Source of the DNA: Candidatus Rokuibacteriota bacterium
GTDB taxonomy: Bacteria > Methylomirabilota > Methylomirabilia > Rokubacteriales > CSP1-6
Length of the DNA stretch: 64,000 nucleotides
Direction of reading: 5' to 3'
Assembly (NCBI GenBank): GCA_003220685.1
Contig: QHTE01000056.1
Coordinates: forward strand, 1,231-65,230
Under the pieces are notes generated by a model. That model was not told where the DNA came from, did no database searches, and worked only from the letters and a program-made list of their open reading frames with translations. A program made the translations under genes and the position numbers. This document shows, piece by piece, positions 4,859 to 17,552 of this stretch (its first letter is position 1; every line of letters begins with the position of its first letter).

Positions 4859-4980
4859 ACGGCCGACGCTGCGATACAGAATCGAACTCGTGTTCCGGCT
4901 TCGAGGTGACAGGCGTTAGAGAAGTGGGTGTGAAGAGGCACCGGGAAGTGTCCCGATGCCCCCGACACGTGAGACGCGTC

Positions 4981-5095
4981 CGATCAATCCGAATCAGTCC
5001 CGATCAGTCCCGGTCAGTCGTCATCGTCGTGGCGGGAGCCCCTAGCACACGAACAAGCACAAGGCGCTTTCGCGCCCGCGGGGACTGGTCGGGAT
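4981..5095. repeat. Tandem 10-bp repeats (consensus CGATCAGTCC, four imperfect copies) plus an inverted copy next to the tRNA-Leu 3' end
   Basis: cgatcaatcc/gaatcagtcc/cgatcagtcc/cggtcagtcg at 4981-5020; ggactggtcg at 5082-5091 is the reverse complement of cgaccagtcc. Confidence 0.7.
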
Positions 5096-5120
5096 CTTTC
5101 CGTAACTACTCAATTAGGTT

Positions 5121-5207
5121 TGGTGCCGAAGCGGGGACTCGAACCCCGACACCCTTGCGGGCACTAGACCCTGAATCTAGCGCGTCTGCCAATTCCGCCA
5201 CTTCGGC
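5121..5207 (-). tRNA. tRNA-Leu (CAG)
   Basis: Minus strand GCCGAAG...CTAGA-TTCAGGG-TCTAG, long variable arm, GGTTCGAGTCC, CTTCGGC-ACCA; CCA encoded. Confidence 0.97.
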
Positions 5208-5239
5208 CCGAAACGCGTGAGTCATAATACCGTTCGGAC

Positions 5240-5728
5240 ATGGTAAGTCAAGCCAGCAAGGCCTCGGGCGACCGTCCGATCGCGACCAATCGTCGCGCGC
5301 GGCACGAGTACGAGATCCTCGAGACGGTCGAGGCCGGGCTGGTACTCCGCGGCACCGAGGTCAAGTCGCTTCGTGAAGGCCAGGTCAGCTTCAAGGACAG
5401 CTATGCGTCGGTCCGGAACGGGGAGGGCTGGCTCCTCGGGTGCCATATCAATCCCTACAGCCATGGGACGGACGCCAACCACGACCCCGAAAGGGACCGG
5501 AAGCTCCTCCTTCATAAAAGGGAGATCGCGCGGCTCAGCGGCAAGATCAGCGAGCGCGGTCTGACGCTCGTTCCGCTCCGCCTCTATTTCAAGGACGGCC
5601 GGGCCAAGGTCGAGCTCGGCCTGGCGCGCGGCAAGAAGCTCCACGACAAGCGGGCCGCGCTGCGCGAGCGGGAGGTTCGTCGCGAGATGGACAAGACCGC
5701 CCGCGCCGCCCGACGCGGTGCCTGGTAG
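5240..5728 (+). CDS. smpB: SsrA-binding protein SmpB
   Basis: IATNRRARHEY, EAGLVLRGTEVKSLR, RKLLLHKREI, GKKLHDKR; directly upstream of tmRNA. Confidence 0.98.
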   Translation: MVSQASKASGDRPIATNRRARHEYEILETVEAGLVLRGTEVKSLREGQVSFKDSYASVRNGEGWLLGCHINPYSHGTDANHDPERDRKLLLHKREIARLSGKISERGLTLVPLRLYFKDGRAKVELGLARGKKLHDKRAALREREVRREMDKTARAARRGAW

Positions 5729-5729
5729 G

Positions 5730-5738
5730 TGCTATACT
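5730..5738 (+). promoter_or_regulatory. Extended -10 promoter element (TGcTATACT) upstream of tmRNA
   Basis: tgctatact about 25 nt before the mature tmRNA 5' end. Confidence 0.55.
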
Positions 5739-5762
5739 CTTGGTAAATCGGATCGTTTCAAA

Positions 5763-6118
5763 GGGGGCGACAGGTTTCGACGGGGATCAGTGAGGTCCAG
5801 GCTGCGTCTCGAGGTTTCTCTCCCCTCGTTAATAAGAGAGAACGGTATAGCTGCCGACACACAGCTAGCCCTGGCGGCCTAACACCCGTCAGCGCCCGCC
5901 GGATCGAGCCATCAGGGTTCGGGAACGGGCGTCATATTCTGGTGGCTGGCTCCGAACCTGGCCTCAGGGGAGGGGCGAGACTTTTGAGGCTGGCCGCGCG
6001 GTGATCCTGTCGATCGGAGTGCCGCGCGGCGAGAAGCAGTAGCGTAGATCGACTATCGACGTAGACGCCTGCGGCTGAGGGTTTCCGGACGTGGGTTCGA
6101 TTCCCACCGCCTCCACCA
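5763..6118 (+). ncRNA. ssrA: tmRNA; tag peptide (A)ADTQLALAA
   Basis: 5' GGGGGCG pairs with 3' CGCCTCC-ACCA including the G3:U wobble; T-loop GGTTCGATTCC; tag frame gcc gac aca cag cta gcc ctg gcg gcc taa at 5853-5882. Confidence 0.97.
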
Positions 6119-6181
6119 ACAACTCAGACGAATCCTCGAAGCCTCCCCGAGCATCACCCAGGTACCGGGGGGGGATGGCCG

Positions 6182-7207
6182 ATGATTGACGTTCGACTGG
6201 TTGGTGCGGGTATCGACGAGTCGGCTGACGCCACCGCACCGACCGCGGTCGACCACTCGAGCGGCCTCGACGATCGCGATCTGCTCGACTCGTACTCGCG
6301 GGCGGTCGTCACGGTCGTGGAGCGCGTCGGCCCTGCGGTCGTGAGCATTGTGGCCGGCCGCGGGTCGCGCAAGGGGGCGGGCGTCGTCGGCGCCGGATCC
6401 GGTGTGATCTTCACGCCCGACGGGTACGTCCTGACCAACAGCCACGTGGTGCACGAGGCCATCGACCTTGGCGTCACGCTGACCGATGGATCCGCCCTGG
6501 GCGCGACGCTTGTCGGGAGCGACCCCGCGACCGATCTGGCAGTCATCCGGGCCGAGGGGTCCGGGTTGCCGACCGCCGAGCTAGGCGAGTCGGCGTCGCT
6601 CCGAGCCGGGCAACTCGTCGTCGCCATCGGGAACCCGTTCGGGTTTCAGTCGACCGTGTCGGCCGGCGTGGTCAGCGCCATCGGTCGATCGCTGCGAACT
6701 GCCACTGGACGGCTGATCGAGAACGTCATCCAAACGGACGTCGCGCTGAATCCCGGCAATTCGGGCGGGCCCCTGGTGGACACGCGGGCGCGAGTCGTCG
6801 GGATCAATACGGCCATCATTGCGATGGCCCAGGGCATCAGCTTCGCCGTCCCGATCGACACCGCGAAGCGCGTGGTGAGTGAGCTGCTCGCGCACGGCCA
6901 CGTTCGTCGCGCGTATCTCGGCATCGTCGGACAGACGCGACCGATCGACCGCCTGGTCGCGCGGCGCTACGCGCTGTCGCAGGCTCATGCCGTCGAAATC
7001 ACGTCGGTCGTCCCCCGCGGCCCGGCTGCGCTCGCCGGGCTGCGCGAAGGGGATCTGGTCGTCTCGCTCGACGATCGCGCCGTCCGTACGGTGGACGACA
7101 TGCATCGCATGCTGGTCGGCCGGCGCTTCGGCGACGAGCTCACCATCGGGGTGATCCGAGGAGATCGGCGCCTGGACGTCGTCGTGGTGCCTGTGGAAGC
7201 TGAGTAG
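6182..7207 (+). CDS. HtrA/DegP-type trypsin-like serine protease with one PDZ domain
   Basis: GSGVI..LTNSHVV, DLAV, IQTDVALNPGNSGGPL, C-terminal PDZ (GPAALAGLREGD). Confidence 0.93.
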   Translation: MIDVRLVGAGIDESADATAPTAVDHSSGLDDRDLLDSYSRAVVTVVERVGPAVVSIVAGRGSRKGAGVVGAGSGVIFTPDGYVLTNSHVVHEAIDLGVTLTDGSALGATLVGSDPATDLAVIRAEGSGLPTAELGESASLRAGQLVVAIGNPFGFQSTVSAGVVSAIGRSLRTATGRLIENVIQTDVALNPGNSGGPLVDTRARVVGINTAIIAMAQGISFAVPIDTAKRVVSELLAHGHVRRAYLGIVGQTRPIDRLVARRYALSQAHAVEITSVVPRGPAALAGLREGDLVVSLDDRAVRTVDDMHRMLVGRRFGDELTIGVIRGDRRLDVVVVPVEAE

Positions 7208-7321
7208 ATACCCCCTGCGTCGCGGCCTCGCTGGTCGGCTGCGCCAGCACCGGCCCCCTGTGGGCGAAGCTCTCGCCCGCTCGCTAGCGCACCGGGCGGC
7301 TCACGCCGTGTAGCCCTCGAC

Positions 7322-7415
7322 AGTCGGTCACGATCCCGTGAGACTCACGGTCGCAGAGCTCGTGTTCCTCGCGCGCCAGCTCGTTGATCCGATCGAGGAC
7401 CTCCTGATCATCCAC
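7322..7415 (-). pseudogene. 5' remnant of a small DUF2630-like protein
   Basis: RBS (agagggg) plus GTG, then DDQEVLDRINELAREEHEL; resemblance is lost after about 30 codons. Confidence 0.45.
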
Positions 7416-7576
7416 GTCGCCCCTCTCTGATGTTCGCGAAGAGCCGCCTCCGTACAGGTCTTTGGATGCAGGAATGACGGCCGCGGTGACGGCCGAGTGG
7501 AACATTTTTCCCGCGGTCCTGCCCCGAGGCGATGCAATTTGTCAGTTTTCTCAGCGATTTGCAGATAGAGAAATGA

Positions 7577-7616
7577 TGGTACAGTGTGGATGAGACTCAC
7601 ATATAACTCACATATA
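7577..7616 (+). promoter_or_regulatory. Putative extended -10 (TGgTACAGT) followed by a perfect 11-bp direct repeat (ACTCACATATA x2)
   Basis: AT-rich intergenic DNA upstream of the 7687-16029 operon; repeat copies at 7595-7605 and 7606-7616. Confidence 0.55.
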
Positions 7617-7686
7617 AAGGAAGCTGGGCGACGGCTCCAATTGGTTACGCCCGCCTCCGCCAACTCACGACGACACTGATTCTTTT

Positions 7687-8373
7687 TTGATCGCGAACGA
7701 CCGCGCTGCTGTGCTGTTCGACTTCGGCGGAACGCTGGACGCCGACGGGCTTCCCTGGAAAGAACGGATGGGCCGCTTGTTCCGCGACGAGGGCGCCGTC
7801 GTCGCCCGCGACCGCTTCGACCCAGCCTACTACGCGGCCGACGACGCGCTGGTCGGCGCCTTGCCGGCGACGACCTCGTTCCGGGCGACGGTCGAGCGGC
7901 TCGCCGCGGGCGTCGCCGCAGCGCTCGAGCTTTCCGATCCGGCGATCGCCGATCGCGTCGCGCGGCGGTTCCTGAGCGACGCGCGGCACGCCCTCGACGC
8001 GAACACGCCGCTGCTCCGCGAGCTCGGCCGGCGCTATCGACTCGGCATCGTCTCCAACTTCTACGGAAACCTGGCGCAGGTGTGCGACGATGCCGGTATT
8101 CGTTCACTGTTTGGTGTGCTCGTCGATTCGGCCGAGGTTGGATGCACGAAGCCGGCCCCGCGAATCTTCCAGCTGGCACTCGACGCCCTCGGCGCCTCCG
8201 CGGCGACGGCCACCTTCGTCGGCGATTCGCTGCCGCGGGACATGGCGGGCGCGCGCGGCGTCGGTATGCGCCACATCTGGCTCGTCGGAGCCGAGTCGCC
8301 GCCGGCGAAGCCGTGCTGCCGCGACGATCGGCAGATCCGCTCGCTCCGGGAGCTGGAGACGATTCTGCTGTGA
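7687..8373 (+). CDS. HAD-superfamily hydrolase/phosphatase
   Basis: Motif I variant FDFGGTLD, motif II VSN, KP, motif IV VGDSLPRD; TTG start. Confidence 0.88.
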   Translation: MIANDRAAVLFDFGGTLDADGLPWKERMGRLFRDEGAVVARDRFDPAYYAADDALVGALPATTSFRATVERLAAGVAAALELSDPAIADRVARRFLSDARHALDANTPLLRELGRRYRLGIVSNFYGNLAQVCDDAGIRSLFGVLVDSAEVGCTKPAPRIFQLALDALGASAATATFVGDSLPRDMAGARGVGMRHIWLVGAESPPAKPCCRDDRQIRSLRELETILL

Positions 8374-9071
8374 GCGTGTTCGCGGGCGGCATCATCGCTG
8401 CGGGTGAGGGCAGCCGGCTGCGCCAGGGCGGGTTCGCGATGCCCAAGCCGATGGTGCCGGTCGCCGGCGTGCCGCTGATCGAGTCGACCATCCGCAATCT
8501 TCGCGCCGCGCGCGTTGGTCCGCTCGCGATCATCGTGAACGAGCGGGAGCGCGAGTGCGTCGACTGGGTCCGCACCCGCTTCCCCGATCTCGACGTCGAG
8601 TTCATCGTCAAGACGACGCAGTCGTCGCTGGAGAGCTTCGGCGAGGTGATCCGACGGCATCCCGGCGGCCGGATGCTCGTGACGACCGTCGACGCGTGGT
8701 GCCTCGAGTCCGACTTCGTGCGGTTGGTGCAGGCCGCGGCCCGACGCCCGCTCGGCGCGACCGTCCTGGCCGTCACGCCGCTGATCGCCGACGAGACGCC
8801 GCTGCGCGTCGTGATGGCGGCCGACGGCCGAATCGAGGAGGTCGGGGGCGCGACGGGCCATCTCGTCACCGCCGGCATGTACCTGGTGCCCGAATCGGTC
8901 CGTGCCGTGCCGCCGCCCGCTGGCCTCGGCCGGCTGCGCGACTTTCTGCAATGGCTGGCGCGCTCGGGCGCGCCGCTGTACGGCGAGATCATCGAACAGG
9001 TCGTGGACGTGGATCGGGCCGACGACGTGGCACTTGCCGAGACGCTCGCCTTGGCGGGCCGGGTATCATAG
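8370..9071 (+). CDS. Nucleotidyltransferase (NTP_transf; IPCT/LicC-like cytidylyltransferase candidate)
   Basis: IIAAGEGSRL...PKPMVPVAG, C-terminal VDVDRADD; GTG start overlaps the HAD stop (GTGA). Confidence 0.85.
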   Translation: MSVFAGGIIAAGEGSRLRQGGFAMPKPMVPVAGVPLIESTIRNLRAARVGPLAIIVNERERECVDWVRTRFPDLDVEFIVKTTQSSLESFGEVIRRHPGGRMLVTTVDAWCLESDFVRLVQAAARRPLGATVLAVTPLIADETPLRVVMAADGRIEEVGGATGHLVTAGMYLVPESVRAVPPPAGLGRLRDFLQWLARSGAPLYGEIIEQVVDVDRADDVALAETLALAGRVS

Positions 9072-9092
9072 ATCGAATCGAGGAGGCCCCGA

Positions 9093-9929
9093 GTGAGCAG
9101 AGTCTGCTGGGGAATCTTTCGCGAGGCGACCCACTCGCCGGGCCGAGAGTCCGACGACACCGAGATTTTGAGGCTGACCGGCAAGCACCTGGAAGCGAAA
9201 GGCTTCCACGTCGAGCTCAAGACGGCCGACGAGGTCACTGAGAACGCGGACAGCTGGCCGCGCTTCGTCTTCCTCATGTGCGAGCGTCTGGAGGTGCTCG
9301 AGCGGCTTCGTGCCCTCGAGGTGGGCGGCGTGCCCCACGTGAACACGCCGCGGGCCGTGCACAACACCTATCGTGACCGGATGATCGCGGTGCTCGACGA
9401 GGCCAACGTGCCGTTCATCCCGAGCCGCGTCCTCGCCACGAGCGAGGCCCCCGAGCCGTGCTCGCTGCCGGTCTGGGTGAAGCGCGGCGACGTCCACAAC
9501 ACGCAGGAAGGCGACGTCGTGCTCGCGTCGGCCGCCGGCGACGTCGAGACCGCGCTCCGCGGGCTCGCCGTGCGCGGCATCGAGCGCGCCGTCCTCCAGC
9601 CGCACGTCGAGGGCGACCTGATCAAGTTCTACGGCATCGGCGCCGGCGGCGGCCCGCATCGCGAGCCGCCCTGGTTTCGCTGGTTCTATCACAAGGACCA
9701 GAAGCTCGCCGGCCATCCGCTGGATCAGCGTCAGCTCGCTCGGCTCGTCCGCCGTGCGGCGGCCGCGCTCGGTCTCGAGGTGTACGGCGGCGATGCGATC
9801 GCGACGGCGACGGGCCAGCTGGTGCTCCTGGACGTGAACGCATGGCCGAGCTTCGCGCTCTACCGTGACGAGGCGTCTGCGGCGATCGCGTCGTACCTGG
9901 CCCTTCGATTCTCGGGAGGCAAGCGTTGA
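9093..9929 (+). CDS. ATP-grasp fold protein with ITPK1-like motifs
   Basis: NTYRDRM, PVWVKRGDVH, VLQPHVEGDLIKFY, LGLEVYGGDAI...LLDVNAWPSF. Confidence 0.75.
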   Translation: MSRVCWGIFREATHSPGRESDDTEILRLTGKHLEAKGFHVELKTADEVTENADSWPRFVFLMCERLEVLERLRALEVGGVPHVNTPRAVHNTYRDRMIAVLDEANVPFIPSRVLATSEAPEPCSLPVWVKRGDVHNTQEGDVVLASAAGDVETALRGLAVRGIERAVLQPHVEGDLIKFYGIGAGGGPHREPPWFRWFYHKDQKLAGHPLDQRQLARLVRRAAAALGLEVYGGDAIATATGQLVLLDVNAWPSFALYRDEASAAIASYLALRFSGGKR

Positions 9930-11254
9930 CCAAACGACGTGAGGTGGGACCGCGCTCGCAGCAGATCGTCGCTCAGGAACGAAAGCACCTCGCCTCCGGC
10001 TCCCAGGGGTTCTCGCTCTACGCGGGGCTCGCGATGGCGCGCGGGGTCGACTGCACCCTGATCGACGAGGACGGCAACGAGTACATCGACTTCATCGCCG
10101 GCATCGCGGTCGGGAGCATCGGCCATTGCCACCCGCACTACGTCGAGGCGCTCAAGCACCAGGTCGAGCGGCTCACCTTCGGCAGCTTCACGACCGAGAC
10201 GCGGGCCAAGTTCCTCGACCTGCTCGGCTCGGTCACGCCCGAGGGGCTCACGCGCATCCAGATGTTCTCGGGTGGGGCCGAAGCGGTGGAAGCCGCGCTG
10301 CGGCTCGCCCACGCCGCCACCGGAAAGGCCGAGGTGCTCGGGTTCTGGGGCGGCTTCCACGGCAAGACCGGCGGCGTGTTGCCGCTGCTCGGCAGCGAGT
10401 TCAAGCACCATCTCGGGCCGTTCATGCCGGGCCGCCATCTCGCGCCCTACGCTGACTGCTACCGCTGCCCGCTCAAGCTCAAGTATCCGGACTGTGGGAT
10501 CGCCTGCGCCGACTTCGTGCGCGACGTCATCCGCTATCAAACGGCCGGCGAGATCGCCGCGATCATCGTCGAGCCGATGCAGGGCACCGCCGGCAACGTC
10601 ATCCCGCCCGAGGGATTCCTGCGCGCGGTGGCCGGGATCGCGCGAGAGCACGGCGCATTGTTCATCGCGGACGAGATGATCACCGGCTTCGGCCGCACCG
10701 GCGCCATGTGGGGCTCGGACCACGAGGGCGTGGTGCCTGACATCATGACGGTCGGCAAAGGCGTGGGCGGCGGCTTTCCGCTCGCGTGCGTGATCTCGAC
10801 CGACGCGCTCACGGCCGCGAAGCCGTGGTCGAACCCGAGCGCCAGCTCGTCCAGCTACGGGGGTAATCCGCTCGCCTCGGCCGCCGGCCTCGCCGCGCTC
10901 GAGATCATCCTGAAGGAAGACCTGGTCAAGAACGCCGAGCGCGTCGGCAAGGTGATGCTCGGTCGGCTCGAGGCGCTCAAGGAGAAGTACCGGTGCGTCG
11001 GCGAGGTGCGCGGGCGCGGCCTCATGCTCGGCATCGAGCTCGTGCGCGACCGGACGACGAAGGAGCCGCTCCCGAAGACGGTGACGCAGGCGCTCTACCA
11101 GGAATGTCTCCGCCGTGGGCTCGTCGCGATGACCTACACGCCGTCGGTCCGCATCAACCCGCCGCTCACGATCAAAGAGGACACGGCGCTGGCGGGGCTC
11201 GCGATCCTGGACGAGGCGCTCGAGGTGGTCGTGAGAGATCACGGGCTCCGATAG
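9926..11254 (+). CDS. Class III PLP-dependent aminotransferase
   Basis: DEDGNEYIDF, GAEAVE, GGFHGKT, EPMQG, IADEMITGFGRTG, PDIMTVGKG (PLP Lys), SYGGNPLA; TTGA overlap with the upstream gene. Confidence 0.93.
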   Translation: MTKRREVGPRSQQIVAQERKHLASGSQGFSLYAGLAMARGVDCTLIDEDGNEYIDFIAGIAVGSIGHCHPHYVEALKHQVERLTFGSFTTETRAKFLDLLGSVTPEGLTRIQMFSGGAEAVEAALRLAHAATGKAEVLGFWGGFHGKTGGVLPLLGSEFKHHLGPFMPGRHLAPYADCYRCPLKLKYPDCGIACADFVRDVIRYQTAGEIAAIIVEPMQGTAGNVIPPEGFLRAVAGIAREHGALFIADEMITGFGRTGAMWGSDHEGVVPDIMTVGKGVGGGFPLACVISTDALTAAKPWSNPSASSSSYGGNPLASAAGLAALEIILKEDLVKNAERVGKVMLGRLEALKEKYRCVGEVRGRGLMLGIELVRDRTTKEPLPKTVTQALYQECLRRGLVAMTYTPSVRINPPLTIKEDTALAGLAILDEALEVVVRDHGLR

Positions 11255-11255
11255 G

Positions 11256-12287
11256 ATGCAGCGCGGCGCGATCATCGGCCTGGGCAACGTCGCCCTTCAC
11301 GGCCACCTGCCCGGCTGGCGCCGCCGGCGCGACGTCGAGATCGTCGCGGTCACCGATGCGCGGCCCGAGCAGCAGGCCCTCGTCTCGGCCCATGCGCCCA
11401 CAGCCCGCTGGTACCCGACCCCGGCCGAGCTCCTGGCCGAGGCCGCCGTGGACTTCGTCGACATCTGCACCCCGCCGAGCAGTCACGCGCCGCTGATCCG
11501 CCTGGCGCTCGAGCGCGGCCGGCACGTGCTCTGCGAGAAGCCGCTCGTCAGCGCCCCCGACGATCTGGCGCCGCTGGCGCGTCTGGCCGAGAAGACCGGA
11601 CGTGTGCTCCACACCGTCCACAACTGGCACCACGCTCCGATCGTGCGCCGTACGGCGGAGCTGATCCGGGACGGCCGGATCGGCCGGGTCGAGCACGTGA
11701 TCTGGCACACTCTGCGTACCCGGCCGGCCGCGGCCGGCGACGAGCGCACCGGGAACTGGCGCGTCGATCCGGCCATCGCGGGCGGCGGCGTCCTCTCCGA
11801 TCACGGCTGGCACGTGTTCTATGTCGTTCAACGCTGGGTCGGCCAGCCGCCGCTGTCGGTGAGCGCCCGGCTCGAGCGGCGGCGGTACGCCGCGTGGGAC
11901 GTCGAGGACACCGCGACGGTTCGCGTGACGTACGCCGGGGCGACCGCCGAGATCCTGTTGACGTGGGCGTCCGAGGTCCGCCGGAACTGGGCCGAGGTCG
12001 GCGGGAGCGCGGGCATGCTCGAATTGCACGACGACACGCTCGTGCTGAAGAGCGGCGGGCCCGCCGCGGATGCCTCCTGGCCGTGTCCGCCGCCGATGTC
12101 GGACGGCTCGCATCACCCGGACTGGTTCGCCGCGGTCGCGAGCCAGTTCCTCGCCGAGACGACCGGCGCAGCGCCGCGCGGGGTGAACCTCGCCGAGGCG
12201 CGGCTCTGCGTGGCGCTCGAGCACGCGGCGCGCGAGTCGAGTCGACAGAAAGGCCGCGAGATCTCCGTCGCGGGAGCCCGGATCTGA
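11256..12287 (+). CDS. Gfo/Idh/MocA-family NAD(P) oxidoreductase (family of inositol dehydrogenases)
   Basis: IIGLGNVA, HVLCEKP, GGGVLSDHGWH, VEDTA. Confidence 0.92.
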   Translation: MQRGAIIGLGNVALHGHLPGWRRRRDVEIVAVTDARPEQQALVSAHAPTARWYPTPAELLAEAAVDFVDICTPPSSHAPLIRLALERGRHVLCEKPLVSAPDDLAPLARLAEKTGRVLHTVHNWHHAPIVRRTAELIRDGRIGRVEHVIWHTLRTRPAAAGDERTGNWRVDPAIAGGGVLSDHGWHVFYVVQRWVGQPPLSVSARLERRRYAAWDVEDTATVRVTYAGATAEILLTWASEVRRNWAEVGGSAGMLELHDDTLVLKSGGPAADASWPCPPPMSDGSHHPDWFAAVASQFLAETTGAAPRGVNLAEARLCVALEHAARESSRQKGREISVAGARI

Positions 12288-13468
12288 CGACCGCGGTCGC
12301 CGTGTCCGTCCGGTCGGCGGAAAGCCTGCTGCTGGTCGTGCCGCCCGAGCCCGGAACGGCCACCAGCGTGTCGCCGGGCATCGTGGTGGCCGGGCTTCCG
12401 CTGCTGCGCCGGATCGTGCTTGCCGGCTCGCGCGCCGGGTTCTCGCGCGTCCTGGTCCAGATTAGCCATGGCGACGCCGAGCGCCTGCTCGGCGGAACGG
12501 CGGCCGGCGCCCTGAGCGGCGCGCGCCTGCCTGACTCGCGGCGGCGGATCGTGATCCTGCCGGCGAACGTGGTGCCCCAGCCGCGATGGCTTCGCGCCCT
12601 TCGCGAGGCCGAGATCGAGCCCGAGCGCCTCTACGCCGACGGACAGCTGGCCGCGGTCGTCGATACCGACGATCCCGCGGGCGTGCTCGAAGCCGCGGTG
12701 CGGTGCCGGGACGTCGGCGAGCTTCTGGCGACCTTGCGCGGCCGGTTCGACGAGGCCAAGCTCGACGTCGACGAGACCGGGCGGTTTCCGATGACGGAGA
12801 CGGCCGACGCCAAGAGGGCGGAAGCGTGGCTCCTGCGCAGCCTGATCAAGCAGCGCGAGGGTTTCATGTCGCGCCACTTCGAGCGGAAGATCTCGCTGGC
12901 GATCACGCGCCGGCTGGCGGTCACGCGCGTCACGCCCGACGTCATGACACTCGTGAGCGTAGCGATCGGGCTGGTCGGCGCCTCATTCTTCCTGTCGTCG
13001 TCGCCCGTGTACCAGCTCGCCGGGGCGCTCCTGTTCCTGGCCCATTCGATCCTCGACGGCTGCGACGGCGAGCTCGCGCGGCTCAAGTTCATGGAGTCGT
13101 CCCGCGGCGCCGTCCTCGACTTCTGGGGCGACAACGTCGTCCACGTCGGCGTGTTCGCGTGCATGGCGCTCGGCCTGAGCCTTGCCCAGGAAGCGACGTG
13201 GCCGCTCGCGCTCGGCGCGGTCACGGTCGTCGCCACGCTCGGCGCCGCGGCGTGCCAGTCGCGCGCCATCATGCTGGACACGGCCGTCGGTGCCGACGCC
13301 AGTTGGATCGCGCGCTTCGCCGAGGCGTTCTCCCACCGCGACTTCATCTATCTGGTGATCGCCCTGTCGGCCTTTGGGAAGGCCCACGTGTTCCTGATCC
13401 TGGCGTCCATCGGAACGCCAATCTTCTTCGGTCTCCTTCTCTGGGTCGGGGCGCGGCGGCGCGCCTGA
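12284..13468 (+). CDS. CDP-alcohol phosphotransferase with degenerate N-terminal nucleotidyltransferase-like domain (IPCT/DIPPS-like architecture)
   Basis: LDGCDGELAR...GAVLDFWGD signature; EGFMSRHFERKIS..VTP; N-terminal VAGLPLLRRIVLAG. Start uncertain (CTG 12284 overlapping the upstream TGA, or GTG 12302). Confidence 0.85.
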   Translation: MTTAVAVSVRSAESLLLVVPPEPGTATSVSPGIVVAGLPLLRRIVLAGSRAGFSRVLVQISHGDAERLLGGTAAGALSGARLPDSRRRIVILPANVVPQPRWLRALREAEIEPERLYADGQLAAVVDTDDPAGVLEAAVRCRDVGELLATLRGRFDEAKLDVDETGRFPMTETADAKRAEAWLLRSLIKQREGFMSRHFERKISLAITRRLAVTRVTPDVMTLVSVAIGLVGASFFLSSSPVYQLAGALLFLAHSILDGCDGELARLKFMESSRGAVLDFWGDNVVHVGVFACMALGLSLAQEATWPLALGAVTVVATLGAAACQSRAIMLDTAVGADASWIARFAEAFSHRDFIYLVIALSAFGKAHVFLILASIGTPIFFGLLLWVGARRRA

Positions 13469-13475
13469 GCTCGCG

Positions 13476-15047
13476 GTGGCGGGGTTCGTCGAGGTCCTTC
13501 TCCGAGGGCTAGCCCTGTGCGGGCAGGCGGTCGCCATCGGCGGCGTGCTCTTCGCGCTGATGCAGCTGCGTCCAACGCTCCCGGAAGGCGCGCCCGCTCG
13601 CTCGCGCCTGGCGAGAAGTCTCGCGCTGACGGCCATCGGGGTGGCGGTCGTCGCCGCCGCGCAACTGCTCTCCCTGGGGGTCCAGCTCTCGGTCCTCGCC
13701 GAGGCGGGCTCCGGCTGGCCCATCGCCGAGGTCGCGCGCACGAGCTTCTTCCGCGCCGGCGCCGTGCGGATCCTGGCCTGCGCGGGGCTCGTGGTCGGGT
13801 GCCTGGTCCTGGCGAGGCACCCGGATCGGCGGCGCTGGTGGATCGCGCTCGCCGCGCTCACGGTGCTCCTGGGCGTCGGCAGCGCGTGGACGAGTCACGC
13901 CGCCGGCCGCCTCGGGCCGCGAGCCGGGCTCCTGATCCTCGATGCGCTGCACCAGCTCGCCGCCGGCGTGTGGATCGGCGGCCTTCTTCATCTGACTCTC
14001 GTCGCGTCCACACGCGCCGAGGCCGGGTGGTCGGCGGCGTTGCTCAAGCGGTTCTCGGCGACGGCGTTCGCGTCCGTGGCGCTTCTGATCGTCGCCGGGG
14101 TGGGGCTGAGCCTGTCCTACGTCGACGGCGCGAGCGCGCTCCTGGGCACCTCGTACGGCAGCATGATTCTCACGAAGAGCGCGGTGCTCGCCGGGCTCGT
14201 CGTCCTGGGCGCGGCGAACTTCGTCGCGGTGCGACGCCTGCCGGAAGGCTCGAGCGTCTCGATCCCGCGGCTTCGGCGCTTCGTCGAGGTCGAATTCGGC
14301 CTGGGGGCGACGGTCCTGTTCATCGCCGCCTCGCTGACGTCGCTGCCCCCCGCGAGTGACGTCGTGGCCGACCGCGCCTCGTTCGCCGAGGTCAGCATCC
14401 GATTCACGCCGCGCTGGCCTGTCTTCACCTCGCCGAGGATCGCGGACATGCCGGTGGACGACCGCAACGCGCCGCGCACGGACGCTGACCGCGCGTGGTC
14501 GGAGTTCAATCATCACTGGGCCGGTATCTTCGTGCTCGTCATGGGGTTGCTGGCCCTCGTGCACGCCACCGGTCGAGTCCGCTGGACGCGCCACTGGCCG
14601 CTGGTGTTCCTCGGCCTCGCGGGCTTCTTGCTCGTCCGCAACGACCCCGGCGCCTGGCCGCTCGGGCCGCTCGGCTTCTTGGAGAGCATGCGGTATCCCG
14701 AGGTGCTCCAGCATCGGATCTTCGTGCTGCTGGTCGTCGCCTTCGGCGTCTTCGAGTGGCTCGTCCGGACGGATCGCGTGCGCGTGCACGGTGCGGCGCT
14801 CGTCTTTCCGCTCCTCTGCGCCGTCGGCGGCGGGCTCCTCCTCACGCACTCGCACGCGGGGCTGAACCTGAAGGAGGAGTACCTCATCGAGATCACGCAC
14901 GTGCCACTGGGGCTCCTGGCCATGATCACGGGCTGGGCGCGCTGGCTCGAGCTGCGCCTGCCGTCGGCCGGGCGGCTGCCGGGTCGGATCTGGCCGCTCG
15001 CATTCACCCTGATCGGTATGTCGCTCATCCTCTACCGGGAAAGCTGA
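13476..15047 (+). CDS. CopD-family copper-uptake/resistance membrane protein with His-rich C-terminal membrane domain
   Basis: WTSHAAG, LHQLAAGVWIGGL, KRFS, TSYG..ILTK, LGAAN; C-terminal WSEFNHH, QHR, THSH. Confidence 0.8.
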   Translation: MAGFVEVLLRGLALCGQAVAIGGVLFALMQLRPTLPEGAPARSRLARSLALTAIGVAVVAAAQLLSLGVQLSVLAEAGSGWPIAEVARTSFFRAGAVRILACAGLVVGCLVLARHPDRRRWWIALAALTVLLGVGSAWTSHAAGRLGPRAGLLILDALHQLAAGVWIGGLLHLTLVASTRAEAGWSAALLKRFSATAFASVALLIVAGVGLSLSYVDGASALLGTSYGSMILTKSAVLAGLVVLGAANFVAVRRLPEGSSVSIPRLRRFVEVEFGLGATVLFIAASLTSLPPASDVVADRASFAEVSIRFTPRWPVFTSPRIADMPVDDRNAPRTDADRAWSEFNHHWAGIFVLVMGLLALVHATGRVRWTRHWPLVFLGLAGFLLVRNDPGAWPLGPLGFLESMRYPEVLQHRIFVLLVVAFGVFEWLVRTDRVRVHGAALVFPLLCAVGGGLLLTHSHAGLNLKEEYLIEITHVPLGLLAMITGWARWLELRLPSAGRLPGRIWPLAFTLIGMSLILYRES

Positions 15048-15048
15048 G

Positions 15049-16029
15049 CTGCGCTACTTCCGCGTCTCGCTCCTCGTGCTCGGTGTGGCGCTGCTCGCGG
15101 CGCTGGTCGCCCAGAACGACCCGGCGGTGGTGCTCGCGTCGATTGCCGATCTCCACTGGCGGCTCGGCGTCGTTCTCTTCTTCCCGGCCGTGCTCGTCGC
15201 GCTCTTCGACACGCTCGGCTGGCGTTACGCCTTCCTGCGCGAGGCCGTCCCGTTCCGCGCGCTGGCGTGGGCCCGGCTCGCCGGCGAGGCCTTCAACATG
15301 ACGACGCCGACCGCCGCCGTGGGCGGCGAGGCCGTCAAGGCCTGGCTGCTCCGCGGGTACGCGCCGCTCGACGCGACCCTCGCGTCGGTGATCGTCGCGA
15401 AGACCACGATCACCCTGGGTCAGGGGCTGTTCTTCCTGGTGGGGGTGGTCGTGGCGTGGGAGACGGGACTGACCGGGACGGCGCTCCTCTACGCCATGCT
15501 CTGGTTCCTGGTGATCGAAGCGATCGCCCTCGGCCTGTTCGTGCTGGTCCAGACGCGCGGCATGCTCGGCTGGACGGGGCGGCTGCTCGAGCGGGTCGGA
15601 ATTCGCCCGGCGAGGGTGCAGGAGATGCTCGGGCGCGTGGACGAATCGCTCGGCCGGTTCTACCGGACCGCCCCGGGGCGGCTCGGCCTCTCAATCTGGT
15701 TCCACTTCGTCGCCTGGTTCCTGGGCTCCGTCGAGACGTGGCTCATCCTGAAATTTCTCGGGAGAGAGGTGTCGCTGGCGACCGCGACCGTGATCGAGGC
15801 GTTCGCCACGGGGATCAAGGTCGCCACTTTCCTGGTTCCGGCCAGCCTCGGCGTGCTCGAGGGCGGCTTCGTGGCCACGGCCGCCACCTTCGGGCTCTCG
15901 GCCACCACGGCGATCTCCTTCAGCCTCGTGCGGCGCCTGCGGGAGGCCGCCTGGGTCGCGATCGGGCTGGTGGCCTTCGCCGCAATGCGGCCGCGCCAGT
16001 CCAGGGCCCCTGATCCCCCCCGATCATAA
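15049..16029 (+). CDS. Lysylphosphatidylglycerol-synthase TM / flippase-like membrane protein (UPF0104/HpnL type)
   Basis: GEAFNMTTPTAAVGGEAVK, VPASLGVLEGG, RRLRE; multiple TM helices. Start CTG 15049 or GTG 15076. Confidence 0.85.
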   Translation: MRYFRVSLLVLGVALLAALVAQNDPAVVLASIADLHWRLGVVLFFPAVLVALFDTLGWRYAFLREAVPFRALAWARLAGEAFNMTTPTAAVGGEAVKAWLLRGYAPLDATLASVIVAKTTITLGQGLFFLVGVVVAWETGLTGTALLYAMLWFLVIEAIALGLFVLVQTRGMLGWTGRLLERVGIRPARVQEMLGRVDESLGRFYRTAPGRLGLSIWFHFVAWFLGSVETWLILKFLGREVSLATATVIEAFATGIKVATFLVPASLGVLEGGFVATAATFGLSATTAISFSLVRRLREAAWVAIGLVAFAAMRPRQSRAPDPPRS

Positions 16030-16070: not shown

Positions 16071-17552
16071 ATGAGCTGTAGATGTCTGGCCGGTGTCCTG
16101 CTCGTGCTCGTGCTCGCCTCGGCGGCCTGGGCGGTGCCGCCTTTGCCCATTGTCACGCACGACGGGCGCCCGTACGTCGAGCTGACCCGGGTGGCGGCCT
16201 CGATCCAGACGAAGGGCACACCGCCGGCGCAGGTCGTCGCGACCCCGGCGAGCACGCGAGCGCAGCTACGCGCCGGGGGCAAGGTCGTCACGCTCACGCG
16301 GAACTGGTCGCAGGTGCTGGTCAACGGAAAGCCGGTTGTGCTCGACGCCCCGGTGCGGGTGAAGCGCGGGGTATGGCTGGTGCCCGAGTCCTTCCTCGGT
16401 CGCGTCGTCCCCGCGCTCCTGGCGAGCGCGCCGATCGCCCCGGTGGCCTCGCGCTTGGCGGCCGCGGCGGTCGAGGTCGGCCTGGAGGACGTCAGGGTCA
16501 GATCGTATCCGTCATTCACGCGTATCGTCGTCGAGACATCGGCGGCCGTCACTCACCGCATCGAGTCGAGCGGGCCCAAGGAAGCGCGCGTGCGGCTGGT
16601 CGGCCTCGGGAGCGGGACGAACGCCCAGGAGATCGGCGACGGGCTCATCGCTGAAGTGCGCCTGGATCGCGCCGGGGCAGACGGGATCCTGCGCGTGGTC
16701 TACGAGGGCGCGGCCGGGACGCTCCGCGCGATGACCCTGGCCGATCCCCCGCGCATCGTGCTCGACGTCTCCCGGCCGGTGGACCCGGGCACACGCGAGA
16801 GCCGGGAGCAGATCGCCCCGCTGAAGACGATCGTGCTCGACGCCGGTCACGGCGGCCACGACACGGGCGCCACCGGGCCGAGCGGCCTCATGGAAAAGGA
16901 CCTCGTGCTCGACGTCACCCGCCGCGTGGCCAAGCTCGTCGAGGCCCGCCTGGGGCTCAAGGTGCTCCTGACGCGCGACTCGGACAATTTCGTCACCCTG
17001 CGCGACCGGACGAGCTTCGCCAACCGACAGCACGCCGACCTGTTCGTGTCGATCCACGCCAACGCGCATCGCGAAGCGGCGGCCGACGGGGTGGAGACAT
17101 ACTTCCTGTCGTCGGAGGCGACGGACAGCGCGGCGCGCCAGGTGGCGGCGCTCGAGAACAGTGCGGTCCAGCTCGAGCAGCCGGCCGGACGCGGAGCCGC
17201 CCAGGCGGATATCGTGAAGGCGATTCTCTGGGACCTCGCGCAATCCGAGTTCCAGGTTGAGTCCTCGCGGCTGGCCGAGGTCGTCCACGATTCGATGACG
17301 CAGACTCTGAGGATCTCGAGCCGCGGCGTGAAACAGGCCGGATTCTACGTGCTCGGCGGCGCGGCGATGCCGGCGATCCTGCTCGAGATCGGCTTCGTCA
17401 CGAATCCCAGGGAAGAGCGCAAGCTCAAGGACACGAAGTACCGGGACGAGATCGCGCGCGCCATCTTCGCCGGCCTCGCGGAGTACAAGCGCACGTGGGA
17501 CCAGCGCGCGCGGGCGGCGGCCGAGACACGCGCCGTCACGCGAACGCGCTAA
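16071..17552 (+). CDS. N-acetylmuramoyl-L-alanine amidase (Amidase_3 with AMIN-like domains)
   Basis: Signal peptide; [36 protein letters not shown]; extended -10 TGtTAGAAT just upstream. Confidence 0.93.

Follow-up and report, generated by a model that had tools for sequence, protein, structure and literature searches.

An eight-gene operon of an uncultured Rokubacterium as a candidate pathway for an aminated inositol lipid head group

Introduction

Eight genes packed on one strand of a contig from a Candidatus Rokuibacteriota bacterium raise the question of which compound they make. They lie at positions 7687-16029 of the window, by which we mean the whole analysed stretch of 64,000 nucleotides. 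The initial annotation proposed a (poly)phosphorylated and/or amino-inositol head group and called the operon undescribed. In the present study, the inositol link and the pairing of a dehydrogenase with an aminotransferase stood up, nothing was found that points to a polyphosphorylated product, and the word undescribed held only by half. We read the operon, with about even confidence, as a Kennedy-type (CDP-alcohol) pathway whose product would be an aminated, myo-inositol-derived head group of a membrane lipid.

Organization and conservation of the operon

Eight plus-strand open reading frames fill the span, so that the co-directional, tightly packed arrangement is real, and Pfam agreed with seven of the eight earlier domain calls, the exception being the ATP-grasp gene at 9093-9929. 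The features are as follows.

7400-7686, plus strand: intergenic leader, A+T-richer than its surroundings, 5' of the first gene; presumed promoter region
7687-8373, plus strand: HAD-IA phosphatase, 228 aa, soluble (PF00702, 7.5e-16)
8370-9071, plus strand: nucleotidyltransferase (NTase), 233 aa, presumed CTP:cyclitol-phosphate cytidylyltransferase (NTP_transf_3, 4.1e-13)
9093-9929, plus strand: ATP-grasp-fold protein of an unnamed family, 278 aa (PDB profile matches, weak NCBIfam matches)
9926-11254, plus strand: class III (GABA-AT-like) PLP aminotransferase (AT3), 442 aa (Aminotran_3 PF00202, 9.1e-100)
11256-12287, plus strand: Gfo/Idh/MocA NAD(P) dehydrogenase (GFO), 343 aa (PF01408 and PF22725, N and C, 2.5e-22 and 3e-23)
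12302-13468, plus strand: CDP-alcohol phosphotransferase (CDP-AP) of AF2299 architecture (CDP-OH_P_transf PF01066, 3.5e-10)
13476-15047, plus strand: CopD-family polytopic membrane protein, 523 aa (CopD PF05425, 6.7e-20)
15076-16029, plus strand: flippase-like membrane protein, nearest model HpnL (LPG_synthase_TM PF03706, 4.7e-25)

Neither a sigma-70-like site nor an Rfam family was found in the leader, and its promoter role is therefore presumed from position only. Of the three gene overlaps first described, two (GTGA at 8370, TTGA at 9926) were confirmed. The third, CTGA at 12284, would need CTG, which is not a usual start; the reading frame offers its next start at 12302 (GTG), and relatives are conserved from about residue 13 on, so that this junction is probably a 15-base gap and not an overlap. 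The GTG start of the ATP-grasp gene is preceded by GGAGG. Contigs of two soil RNA libraries hold pieces identical to the window that span three gene junctions; DNA carry-over may be included in them.

Conservation of gene order had been named as a check on the operon, and the order proved to be conserved. The six core genes are complete in 58/58 related loci with room, 56 of which keep the same order and strand, so the arrangement recurs far more than by chance. The HAD gene was found in all 71 loci with room for it and the CopD-like gene in 46 of 59, the latter being absent from Methylomirabilis/Nitrospiraceae-type loci. At 40% identity or more, a flippase-like gene adjoins in 36/57 loci with room, and type-C loci have a more distant copy upstream of HAD. 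The ATP-grasp marker is present in 93 of the 201 sampled genomes of the phylum (55/104 of the high-quality ones). Its family counts 1163 representatives at E<=1e-3; fusions join NTase and ATP-grasp in 6 representatives, HAD, NTase and ATP-grasp in one protein (P0030), and ATP-grasp and CDP-AP in another single case. Together with a fusion of AT3 and GFO described below, they speak for a coupling of the steps.

Link to inositol

The window has no gene for myo-inositol-phosphate synthase (MIPS), as had been noted before; in this genome MIPS is encoded outside it. Co-occurrence with MIPS, the second check named earlier, was also found. Of 80 related loci, 19 have a MIPS gene next to the operon; in the Methylomirabilis/Nitrospiraceae type, all 8 loci have it immediately behind the CDP-AP gene. 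Among the 201 genomes, MIPS is present in 90/93 operon carriers versus 59/108 non-carriers. The adjacency spans three unrelated arrangements and two MIPS types. This argues against a pathway with no inositol at all, in which the group activated by the NTase and transferred by the CDP-AP would be a sugar-1-phosphate, an amino alcohol phosphate or a phosphonate. Several findings do lean that way: the best solved matches of the NTase profile are sugar-1-phosphate NTases (about 1e-10, versus 5.4e-5 over the full length for IPCT 2xme), AT3 scores strongly with two phospho-amine enzymes, at 9.4e-87 for the PbfA model and at 4.9e-65 for ethanolamine-phosphate phospho-lyase, and a TPP enzyme of phosphonopyruvate-decarboxylase size lies near a second module in one locus (L089). 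Nevertheless, the strong matches of the CDP-AP are only to enzymes of the inositol-phosphate type, and we hold such a pathway to be highly improbable.

The profile did not support the IPCT type named at first for the NTase, since IPCT lies no nearer to it than the sugar-1-phosphate NTases do; the motif AAGxGxRL...PKP is invariant in A5. The genome also has, elsewhere, a PIPS/AIPS-like gene that scores better than the CDP-AP of the window and was assigned to ordinary phosphatidylinositol (PI). With ordinary PI attributed to that gene, the operon probably makes something else; it may also be the PIPS-like enzyme, and not the operon, that draws on the MIPS of this genome.

Relation to known CDP-inositol enzymes

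The best models and structures of the CDP-AP are all inositol-phosphate enzymes (AF2299, IPCT/DIPPS, AIPS and PIPS). Its PDB matches are AF2299 at 2.6e-31, IPCT/DIPPS at 2.8e-22 and PIPS at about 1e-11. It matches the IPCT/DIPPS model at 4.6e-23, in the DIPPS part only and at 81.9 bits against an equivalog cut-off of 580, and the PIPS model at 39.7 bits against 170. The catalytic motif D-x2-D-G-x2-A-R-x8-G-x3-D-x3-D is intact and is the same in IPCT/DIPPS and in AF2299 of Archaeoglobus fulgidus, the best structural matches, which likewise have a cytosolic N-terminal domain ahead of the membrane domain. In the protein of the window, in contrast, this domain is degenerate, NTase-like and without the GxGxR nucleotide-binding signature, the NTase is a separate gene, and the organisms that carry the operon are mesophilic soil bacteria.

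AF2299 and DIPPS act on soluble substrates, and an NTase, a CDP-AP, a phosphatase and MIPS give the full logic of di-inositol-phosphate (DIP) synthesis, which the two systems have in common. The HAD, NTase and ATP-grasp proteins are, in addition, all soluble and found fused. The operon could thus make a soluble phosphodiester, a compatible solute like di-inositol phosphate or glycerophosphoinositol and perhaps aminated, if, as in the DIP pathway, the CDP-AP condensed a CDP-polyol with a polyol phosphate and the phosphate left over were then cleaved off by the HAD protein. The score far below the DIPPS cut-off speaks against such a product, as do the flippase-like membrane protein that goes with the Methylomirabilota/Nitrospiraceae arrangements and the linkage of the operon to Mla, MMPL and hopanoid genes. 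Furthermore, the homologous gut cluster was proposed (Heaver 2022, PMC9246714) from inositol-sphingolipid makers in which the other known pathway is absent. A solute is in our opinion distinctly unlikely. Unlike in IPCT/DIPPS, the flippase-like gene and the lipid-transport neighbours point to a lipid. The bacterial PIP synthase/PIP phosphatase route to PI (mycobacteria, BT_1523/BT_1525) likewise draws on the MIPS product and employs a phosphatase and an enzyme of the CDP-AP family, but its donor is CDP-diacylglycerol and, unlike the window, it needs neither an NTase nor an ATP-grasp protein.

The four-gene core in gut bacteria

NTase, ATP-grasp, CDP-AP and HAD genes occur together in 40 gut-metagenome loci, 34 of which have MIPS no more than 10 kb away. 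These loci, probably of Bacteroidota, are colinear with the genes of the window at 25-38% identity and have the ATP-grasp homologue between NTase and CDP-AP. AT3, GFO and CopD are absent from 40/40 of them, a flippase-like gene was detected in only 4/40, and their CDP-AP proteins (about 305 aa) are without the AF2299-like N-terminal domain seen in the window.

The Bacteroidota set of HAD, NTase, CDP-AP and LPG-synthase-like genes named in the initial annotation is in print. Heaver 2022 (PMC9246714) describes an "alternative inositol-lipid cluster" of Bacteroides vulgatus, proposed for PI-dihydroceramide synthesis and unconfirmed, with an NTP transferase, a CDP-alcohol phosphotransferase, a HAD hydrolase and an LPG-synthase-like membrane protein together with MIPS. 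By this published description its gene content matches the gut four-gene core. The ATP-grasp gene has 0 occurrences in the main text, and its homologue would fit the space left in the series of published locus tags (RS13095, RS13105, RS13115; PMC9246714). The core, already published as an unconfirmed prediction (PMC9246714), cannot be called undescribed; this is why the term was only half right. To the cluster described there, the window adds the class III aminotransferase, the Gfo/Idh/MocA dehydrogenase and the CopD-like protein. The inositol link thus stands on conserved gene order, on adjacency and co-occurrence of MIPS, on the published Bacteroidota set and on the colinear gut loci.

The aminotransferase and dehydrogenase pair

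Among the loci examined, the AT3/GFO pair is confined to the Methylomirabilota/Nitrospirota version of the operon, and AT3 is the best-conserved gene of the set (71-93% identity). Among solved structures it comes nearest to GABA aminotransferases, archaeal racemases and ethanolamine-phosphate phospho-lyase, that is, users of omega-amines, racemases or lyases. GFO matches the IolG model at 4.4e-18, far below the cut-off, and in the PDB an aldose-aldose oxidoreductase (1.3e-20) and inositol 2-dehydrogenase (5.2e-13). In the streptomycin scyllo-inosamine, WbpB/WbpE and GnnA/GnnB systems, a Gfo/Idh/MocA enzyme likewise forms a ketone, which a PLP aminotransferase then aminates. The known aminotransferases of inososes, however, belong to the DegT/StsC family, which is also the type of the known partners in these systems, whereas the partner in the window is class III and GABA-AT-like.

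The head group may also be plain inositol, with the operon serving as another way to make phosphatidylinositol or an inositol phospho-lipid and AT3/GFO doing other work, such as inositol epimerisation via a ketone, acceptor synthesis or a lyase/racemase reaction. The gut version without the pair agrees with this, as do the racemases, lyases and decarboxylases among the nearest solved class III relatives of AT3 and the ability of Gfo/Idh/MocA enzymes to reduce ketones as well. Against it, AT3 (73/73) and GFO (68/68) are present in every locus with room, between the ATP-grasp and CDP-AP genes, one protein fuses the two (P0253), and the genome already has its PIPS-like gene for ordinary PI. We consider a plain inositol head group unlikely. 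The constant company of AT3 and GFO and their fusion agree with the initial view of the pair as one unit.

The HAD and ATP-grasp proteins

The HAD protein matches HAD-IA subfamily models of NCBIfam, none at equivalog level, and no hydrophobic segment was found in it. The ATP-grasp protein matched no Pfam family and gave weak NCBIfam matches to RimK/MptN. Its 99-sequence profile matched a PsnB-type ATP-grasp protein (2.6e-7), ITPK4 (1.9e-5) and RimK-type ligases (5.8e-5) in the PDB, at about equal distance from ligases (PsnB, RimK) and inositol-phosphate kinases; K130, D247 and N249 are invariant and D234 nearly so. We propose it as a cyclitol kinase, a ligase being also possible as sequence does not tell the two apart.

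Hopanoid and lipid-transport surroundings

The tie of the operon to hopanoid, Mla and HpnN-like genes was missing from the initial annotation. In relatives the operon lies inside SHC-MlaEFDC-MIPS-MMPL clusters: in L070 and L093 within SHC-MlaEFDC...MIPS-MMPL, and in L084, L090, L098 and L104 directly beside SHC in the order SHC-Flp-HAD-NT-AG-AT3-GFO-CDP. In this genome MIPS stands between MlaC and an HpnN-like MMPL/sterol-sensing gene, with SHC and a radical SAM gene resembling HpnH as neighbours. The ATP-grasp gene is within 15 kb of SHC in 13/66 genomes, and MIPS in 66/102 genomes with listed positions. As SHC is present in 191/201 genomes of the phylum, physical linkage is informative and co-occurrence is not. 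Within the genus of this organism, however, hopanoid genes do not adjoin the operon. HpnL is the best model of the flippase-like protein (TIGR03476, 2.4e-48), at 165 bits below the cut-off of 195.65. HpnL, HpnM, HpnN, HpnH and HpnO are products of hopanoid-associated hpn genes; the MlaC of these clusters is HpnM-like and their MMPL is HpnN-like, and a radical SAM gene resembling HpnH also adjoins the operon in relatives.

These neighbours suit a composite hopanoid, in which the CDP-AP would put phospho-inositol or phospho-inosamine on a hydroxyl of bacteriohopanepolyol, or AT3 would act on the hopanoid side chain like HpnO, itself a class III aminotransferase, with export to the outer membrane by the HpnL-like protein and the HpnN-like transporter. 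Besides the HpnL score, several points weigh against it. In the Nitrospiraceae-labelled loci L094, L103 and L112, no SHC, Mla or MMPL gene was found near the operon. The four-gene core also occurs in the gut loci, and as their probable hosts, Bacteroidota, are not known as hopanoid makers, the acceptor need not be a hopanoid. We know of no hpn cluster described with MIPS, CDP-AP or NTase; the literature searched gave none, nor any paper joining bacteriohopanepolyols to inositol head groups. We judge a composite hopanoid unlikely.

Proposed pathway

In the aminated head-group pathway that we prefer, with substrates and order of steps as we infer them, MIPS would provide inositol-3-phosphate and the soluble HAD phosphatase would release free inositol. 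GFO would oxidise one hydroxyl of the ring, and AT3 would convert the resulting ketone to an amine, giving an inosamine. The ATP-grasp protein would then re-phosphorylate the cyclitol, the NTase would form the CDP-cyclitol, and the AF2299/DIPPS-like CDP-AP would transfer the phospho-cyclitol to a lipid alcohol, possibly a diacylglycerol-type lipid or bacteriohopanepolyol. The HpnL-like protein may carry the product across the membrane. The CopD-like protein, with 9 hydrophobic segments and a 230-aa C-terminal extension that matched no family, is outside this scheme. A lipid is preferred over a solute because of the flippase-like gene in the Methylomirabilota/Nitrospiraceae arrangements and the few gut loci, and because of the SHC-MlaEFDC-MIPS-MMPL clusters.

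No report of a lipid with an aminated inositol head group was found in the literature searched. If the proposed pathway is true, uncultured soil Rokubacteria would make a kind of lipid so far undescribed.

Results

The assembly that holds the window comprises 6.09 Mb in 137 contigs with a completeness of 87.6%, and the nearest named relatives are MAGs labelled Candidatus Rokubacteria or Rokuibacteriota, of the phylum Methylomirabilota. In the window, eight plus-strand ORFs follow one another, either overlapping or separated by a few bases. A simple hydropathy scan gave five soluble and three polytopic proteins. Seven of the eight have a Pfam assignment, namely HAD, NTP_transf_3 (nucleotidyltransferase, NTase), class III aminotransferase (AT3), Gfo/Idh/MocA dehydrogenase (GFO), CDP-alcohol phosphotransferase (CDP-AP), CopD and LPG_synthase_TM (flippase-like). 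The initial annotation had placed start/stop overlaps at 8370, 9926 and 12284; the first two are real in the sequence, whereas the codon at 12284 is CTG and the start of CDP-AP is more likely GTG 12302.

Features of the operon and its surroundings in the window
5240-5728: SmpB-sized ORF of 162 aa adjoining the tmRNA gene, probably SmpB by its homologous gene in the related locus L038
5763-6118: tmRNA (Rfam, 180.5 bits)
6182-7207: trypsin-like/PDZ (HtrA-type) protease gene, after the tmRNA
7400-7686: leader of about 290 bases
7687-16029, + strand: the eight-gene operon
9093-9929, + strand: third gene of the operon, ATP-grasp protein, in no Pfam family
16071-17552: N-acetylmuramoyl-L-alanine amidase with Cu_amine_oxidN1-like and AMIN domains, downstream of the operon

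The leader looks markedly richer in A+T than the window (65-72% G+C) and contains CTCACATATAA twice, as a near-repeat with one base of difference between the copies; it matched no Rfam family and the promoter scan of it was empty. Terminator-like sites within the operon numbered 7 vs 3.3 ± 1.8 in shuffles, which is not clearly above. The amidase was rejected as a member of the operon, since its synteny is found in close relatives only and it is an ordinary AmiC-type gene.

For the conservation survey the ATP-grasp protein was used as marker. Among species-representative genomes 383 relatives of it were found, and the best 80 loci were examined; these are mostly from Rokubacteria/Methylomirabilota MAGs, with a few labelled Nitrospira, Nitrospiraceae or Nitrospirae, and some bear other taxon labels that may be binning errors. 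The conservation of gene order, on which the initial annotation had made its proposal depend, was borne out, as order and strand are kept in 56 of the 58 related loci with room; in L089 and L093 the CDP-AP gene is placed upstream instead. AT3 is the best-conserved protein of the set. In 13 related loci (L106 6558-8588 and 12 others) the gene immediately upstream of HAD encodes a 676-aa molybdopterin oxidoreductase.

Presence of the operon genes in related loci with room and in gut loci longer than 12 kb
Related loci, six core genes (HAD, NTase, ATP-grasp, AT3, GFO, CDP-AP) all present: 58/58
Related loci, CopD-like gene: 46/59
Related loci, flippase-like gene, at least 40% identity: 36/57
Gut loci, ATP-grasp: 40/40
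Gut loci, CDP-AP: 40/40
Gut loci, HAD: 39/40
Gut loci, NTase: 35/40
Gut loci, myo-inositol-phosphate synthase (MIPS) within 10 kb: 34/40
Gut loci, flippase-like gene: 4/40
Gut loci, AT3, GFO or CopD-like gene: 0/40

Natural fusion proteins link four of the core proteins (six NTase-ATP-grasp, one HAD-NTase-ATP-grasp and one ATP-grasp-CDP-AP), and one AT3-GFO fused protein was also found (P0004, P0005, P0078, P0084, P0114, P0132, P0030, P0011, P0253); some of the fusions could be artefacts of gene calling on short metagenome contigs. In the phylum sample the marker is present in 93 of 201 genomes, and in 55 of the 104 of high quality. The counts on this sample include genomes flagged as unpublished (G090, and for squalene-hopene cyclase, SHC, also G065, G081, G127 and G166), whose omission shifts each count by at most 5.

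The window has no MIPS gene, just as the initial annotation had stated, and the one MIPS gene of the own genome lies on another contig. The proposed co-occurrence with MIPS was confirmed, since 90 of 93 marker-positive genomes carry it vs 59 of 108 marker-negative ones, counts that are no statistical test because the genomes are related. The three marker-positive genomes in which MIPS was missing are 78-88% complete. MIPS stands beside the operon in 19 of the 80 loci (16/48 among those of at least 15 kb), being of the type of the own genome in 11 loci and of a longer NAD_binding_5 type in 8; therefore, one operon has gained different MIPS types depending on the lineage. All eight Methylomirabilis/Nitrospiraceae-type loci have MIPS immediately after the CDP-AP gene; the order is SHC-flippase-like-HAD-NTase-ATP-grasp-AT3-GFO-CDP-AP-MIPS in Ca. 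Methylomirabilis and flippase-like-HAD-NTase-ATP-grasp-AT3-GFO-CDP-AP-MIPS-radical SAM/SPASM in L103. The pathway very probably uses the product of MIPS.

Some further genes were observed around these loci. Some relatives have, upstream of the operon and next to MIPS, a second, simpler module (an NTP_transf_3 protein, a CDP-AP paralogue 31-34% identical and a flippase-like protein), and a paralogous CDP-AP/flippase-like pair occurs in 8 of 11 more distant loci from other families of the order.

Further genes beside the operon in related loci
L103 14608-17348 and L112 (both Nitrospiraceae-labelled): long-type MIPS (447 aa, NAD_binding_5) at the end of the operon
L103, after MIPS: radical SAM/SPASM protein; in L112 its homologue stands at another place in the locus, on the opposite strand
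L089 1264-7312: second module, with a 395-aa TPP enzyme (TPP_enzyme_N/C) ahead of it
L071 1342-5692: second module
L075, L080, L102: second module

The most distant ATP-grasp clade, searched against metagenome contigs, gave 80 loci, mainly from gut and rumen, and the 40 longer than 12 kb were examined. Their gene order is NTase-ATP-grasp-CDP-AP-(flippase-like)-HAD; in L161 it is MIPS-NTase-ATP-grasp-CDP-AP-LPG_synthase_TM-HAD. In B. vulgatus and Prevotella, Heaver 2022 (PMC9246714) describes a 'putative alternative inositol lipid cluster' close to MIPS; these species lack the B. thetaiotaomicron genes and nevertheless produce inositol dihydroceramide, and the authors state that the functions of the cluster are not confirmed. 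The content of the gut loci is the same as that of this cluster. The main text names the NTase, the CDP-AP and the HAD protein, with a locus-tag spacing of five in steps of two, and within that main text there is no mention of an ATP-grasp gene (PMC9246714). We infer that the B. vulgatus gene between NTase and CDP-AP is a homologue of the third gene of the window. The operon of the window likewise has NTase, CDP-AP, HAD and LPG-synthase-like genes with colinear homology to the 40 gut loci and, because of its extra genes, it is considered a variant of the B. vulgatus-like cluster.

The ATP-grasp profile, built from 99 family members, matched five groups of ATP-grasp structures in the PDB, which places the protein in this superfamily; the matches include PsnB-type proteins (2.6e-7), ITPK4 (1.9e-5), RimK-type ligases (5.8e-5) and ITPK1 (6.5e-4). 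The ATP/Mg residues K130, D247 and N249 are invariant in the 99 sequences. The alignment to ITPK4 and ITPK1 is confined to the C-terminal third, and the RimK-type ligases cover more at similar E-values. In the ESM Atlas all clusters of this protein are named 'hypothetical protein', RimK making up 16% of one of them, and those of the CopD-like protein are generic CopD clusters; no structure was found there for either.

The CDP-AP protein scored 40.9 bits on PF01066 (cut-off 22) and has hydrophobic segments, as expected of a CDP-alcohol phosphotransferase; its motif D-x2-D-G-x2-A-R-x8-G-x3-D-x3-D is complete and invariant in 14 orthologues. The best PDB match was AF2299 of Archaeoglobus (4o6m, 2.6e-31), which aligned weakly over a further stretch in the N-domain, followed by an IPCT/DIPPS enzyme (2.8e-22), the PIP synthases being far behind. 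Like AF2299, the protein combines an N-terminal cytosolic domain with a CDP-AP membrane domain. The first approximately 170 residues are conserved among orthologues, weakly alignable to the AF2299 N-domain and devoid of GxGxR, and this part looks like an NTase-like domain that has lost the GxGxR loop. The top NCBIfam models were IPCT/DIPPS (NF041135, 81.9 bits vs cut-off 580, with the DIPPS part alone aligned), archaetidylinositol-phosphate synthase and PIP synthase (NF045883, 39.7 bits vs 170), all far under their cut-offs, so that the protein belongs to none of the IPCT/DIPPS and PIP synthase families. Because of its motif and its structure and model matches, we regard it as an AF2299-like member of the inositol-phosphate branch, equivalog of no characterised enzyme. 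In the PDB profile search, the NTase matched the IPCT structure 2xme at 5.4e-5 over its full length and sugar-1-phosphate NTases at about 1e-10.

Between the ATP-grasp and CDP-AP genes, AT3 is inserted in 73 of 73 and GFO in 68 of 68 Methylomirabilota/Nitrospirota loci with room. A dehydrogenase/aminotransferase pair is the standard means of replacing a hydroxyl by an amine via the ketone. GFO is nearest, at low scores, to aldose and inositol dehydrogenases, and with 65.2 bits vs a cut-off of 355 on the IolG model TIGR04380 it is assigned to the wider Gfo/Idh/MocA family only. Among solved structures AT3 is closest to GABA-type aminotransferases, to archaeal racemases and to a phospho-lyase, and a homologue search returned orthologues only, under generic names. 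To our knowledge, the aminotransferase family that acts on inososes is another than class III, which leaves an inosose as a candidate substrate here. The HpnO-type hopanoid aminotransferase is presumably of class III, with a fold in common with AT3.

The best model for the flippase-like protein was HpnL (TIGR03476, 165.1 bits vs cut-off 195.65); SHC, the expected neighbour of HpnL, adjoins the operon in some relatives and is absent near it in the window. In the own genome, MIPS is set among an HpnH-like radical SAM gene, a carotenoid-synthesis-like gene, SHC, MlaE, MlaF, MlaD, MlaC, MIPS and an MMPL/sterol-sensing (HpnN-like) gene, in this order.

Own-genome locus with MIPS
L117 (G000:C74:76000-95999) 2908-13227: MIPS/hopanoid cluster
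L117 13470-15509, - strand: molybdopterin oxidoreductase of the same 676-aa type, adjoining the HpnN-like gene

In L070 and L093 the operon is inserted into exactly this SHC-MlaEFDC-MIPS-MMPL cluster, in L084, L090, L098 and L104 it comes directly after SHC, and L069 has an HpnH-like gene downstream of it. Among genomes with both positions listed, MIPS and SHC lie within 15 kb of each other in 66 of 102 (G090, also counted as a carrier of ATP-grasp and MIPS, is one of the 66), ATP-grasp and MIPS in 17 of 78, and ATP-grasp and SHC in 13 of 66. Co-occurrence with SHC was rejected as evidence, and physical linkage alone counts for it, because the cyclase is nearly universal in the phylum sample (191/201).

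Rokubacteria and related bacteria are abundant in soil and uncultured. The 8.7-kb operon stretch was found near-whole (0.86-0.93 of sampled words) in 14 soil metagenome runs from 12 studies, one of which runs is possibly the source sample. Contigs from two soil RNA libraries of one study have 0-1 differences to the window and span the NTase/ATP-grasp, ATP-grasp/AT3 and GFO/CDP-AP junctions. Their support for operon transcription is weak because these libraries may include DNA carry-over, and over most of 13.5-16.1 kb contig cover is missing and uninformative. In the same comparison the runs X17 and X19, which have a small share, show many differences and probably derive from relatives.

Discussion

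The present results can be arranged into a Kennedy-type pathway of seven steps. MIPS would provide inositol-3-phosphate, from which the HAD protein would release free inositol; GFO and AT3 would turn this into inosamine, a step missing from the gut version. The ATP-grasp protein would then phosphorylate the cyclitol anew, the NTase would make the CDP-cyclitol, CDP-AP would pass the phospho-cyclitol to a lipid alcohol, and the flippase-like protein would translocate the product. This reading gives every enzyme a job, with putative substrates throughout, and we consider it evenly balanced between right and wrong; that the product is a membrane lipid is probable. It is based on the homology of the core to an inositol-lipid-tied cluster, on the fusions among the soluble HAD, NTase and ATP-grasp proteins and on the position of the transferase in the inositol-phosphate branch. 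Removing the phosphate and adding it back would also account for the need of the gut version for both HAD and ATP-grasp proteins, and from textbook inositol stereochemistry this exchange could shift the phosphate from the position delivered by MIPS to that of the head-group linkage.

For the lipid acceptor, a glycerolipid is the default. The hopanoid gene neighbourhood of the operon suggests bacteriohopanepolyol instead, although this acceptor cannot be a requirement of the gut version. The own genome also has one separate PIPS/AIPS-like gene, two PgsA-like genes and one PssA-like gene, so ordinary phospholipids are provided for. The PIPS/AIPS-like CDP-AP (L005, G000:C15, approximately 72329-72769, - strand) scored 163 bits vs a cut-off of 180 for AIPS and 128 vs 170 for PIPS; therefore, the genome probably also has a conventional way of making phosphatidylinositol from inositol phosphate.

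The four-gene core is a published, untested prediction (Heaver 2022, PMC9246714). In the limited literature collection that was searched, we found no follow-up of this alternative Bacteroidota pathway, no ATP-grasp member of an inositol-lipid core, no aminotransferase/dehydrogenase insertion and no AF2299-like transferase domain with hopanoid/Mla/MMPL embedding. Among the papers listed from the same collection, we found none that joins CDP-inositol with ATP-grasp and no report of an inosamine-bearing phospholipid, of inositol synthesis tied to hopanoid genes, of a bacteriohopanepolyol lipid with inositol or of an inositol/hopanoid link in Methylomirabilis, and nothing relevant on ValM/validone or, judged by titles and abstract starts, on Rokubacteria and inositol.

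Taken at its widest, the proposal is of an undescribed class of membrane lipids, made by Methylomirabilota (Rokubacteria, Methylomirabilis) and by some Nitrospirota, with an aminocyclitol phosphate (phospho-inosamine) head group that may sit on bacteriohopanepolyol and not on glycerol. ATP-grasp cyclitol kinases of a new family would be required for it and would also act, so far unnoticed, in the second inositol-lipid pathway that gut Bacteroidota have. We put this forward tentatively, as a possibility that is on balance doubtful. Independently of this, that unconfirmed second pathway seems to include the ATP-grasp gene as a conserved component that has been overlooked, which gives a concrete candidate gene for work on it. 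A conserved pathway to a nitrogen-bearing inositol head group would mean a new polar lipid class and a candidate geochemical biomarker of both Methylomirabilota and Nitrospirota; it would also be the first link of inositol metabolism to hopanoids and outer-membrane lipid transport.
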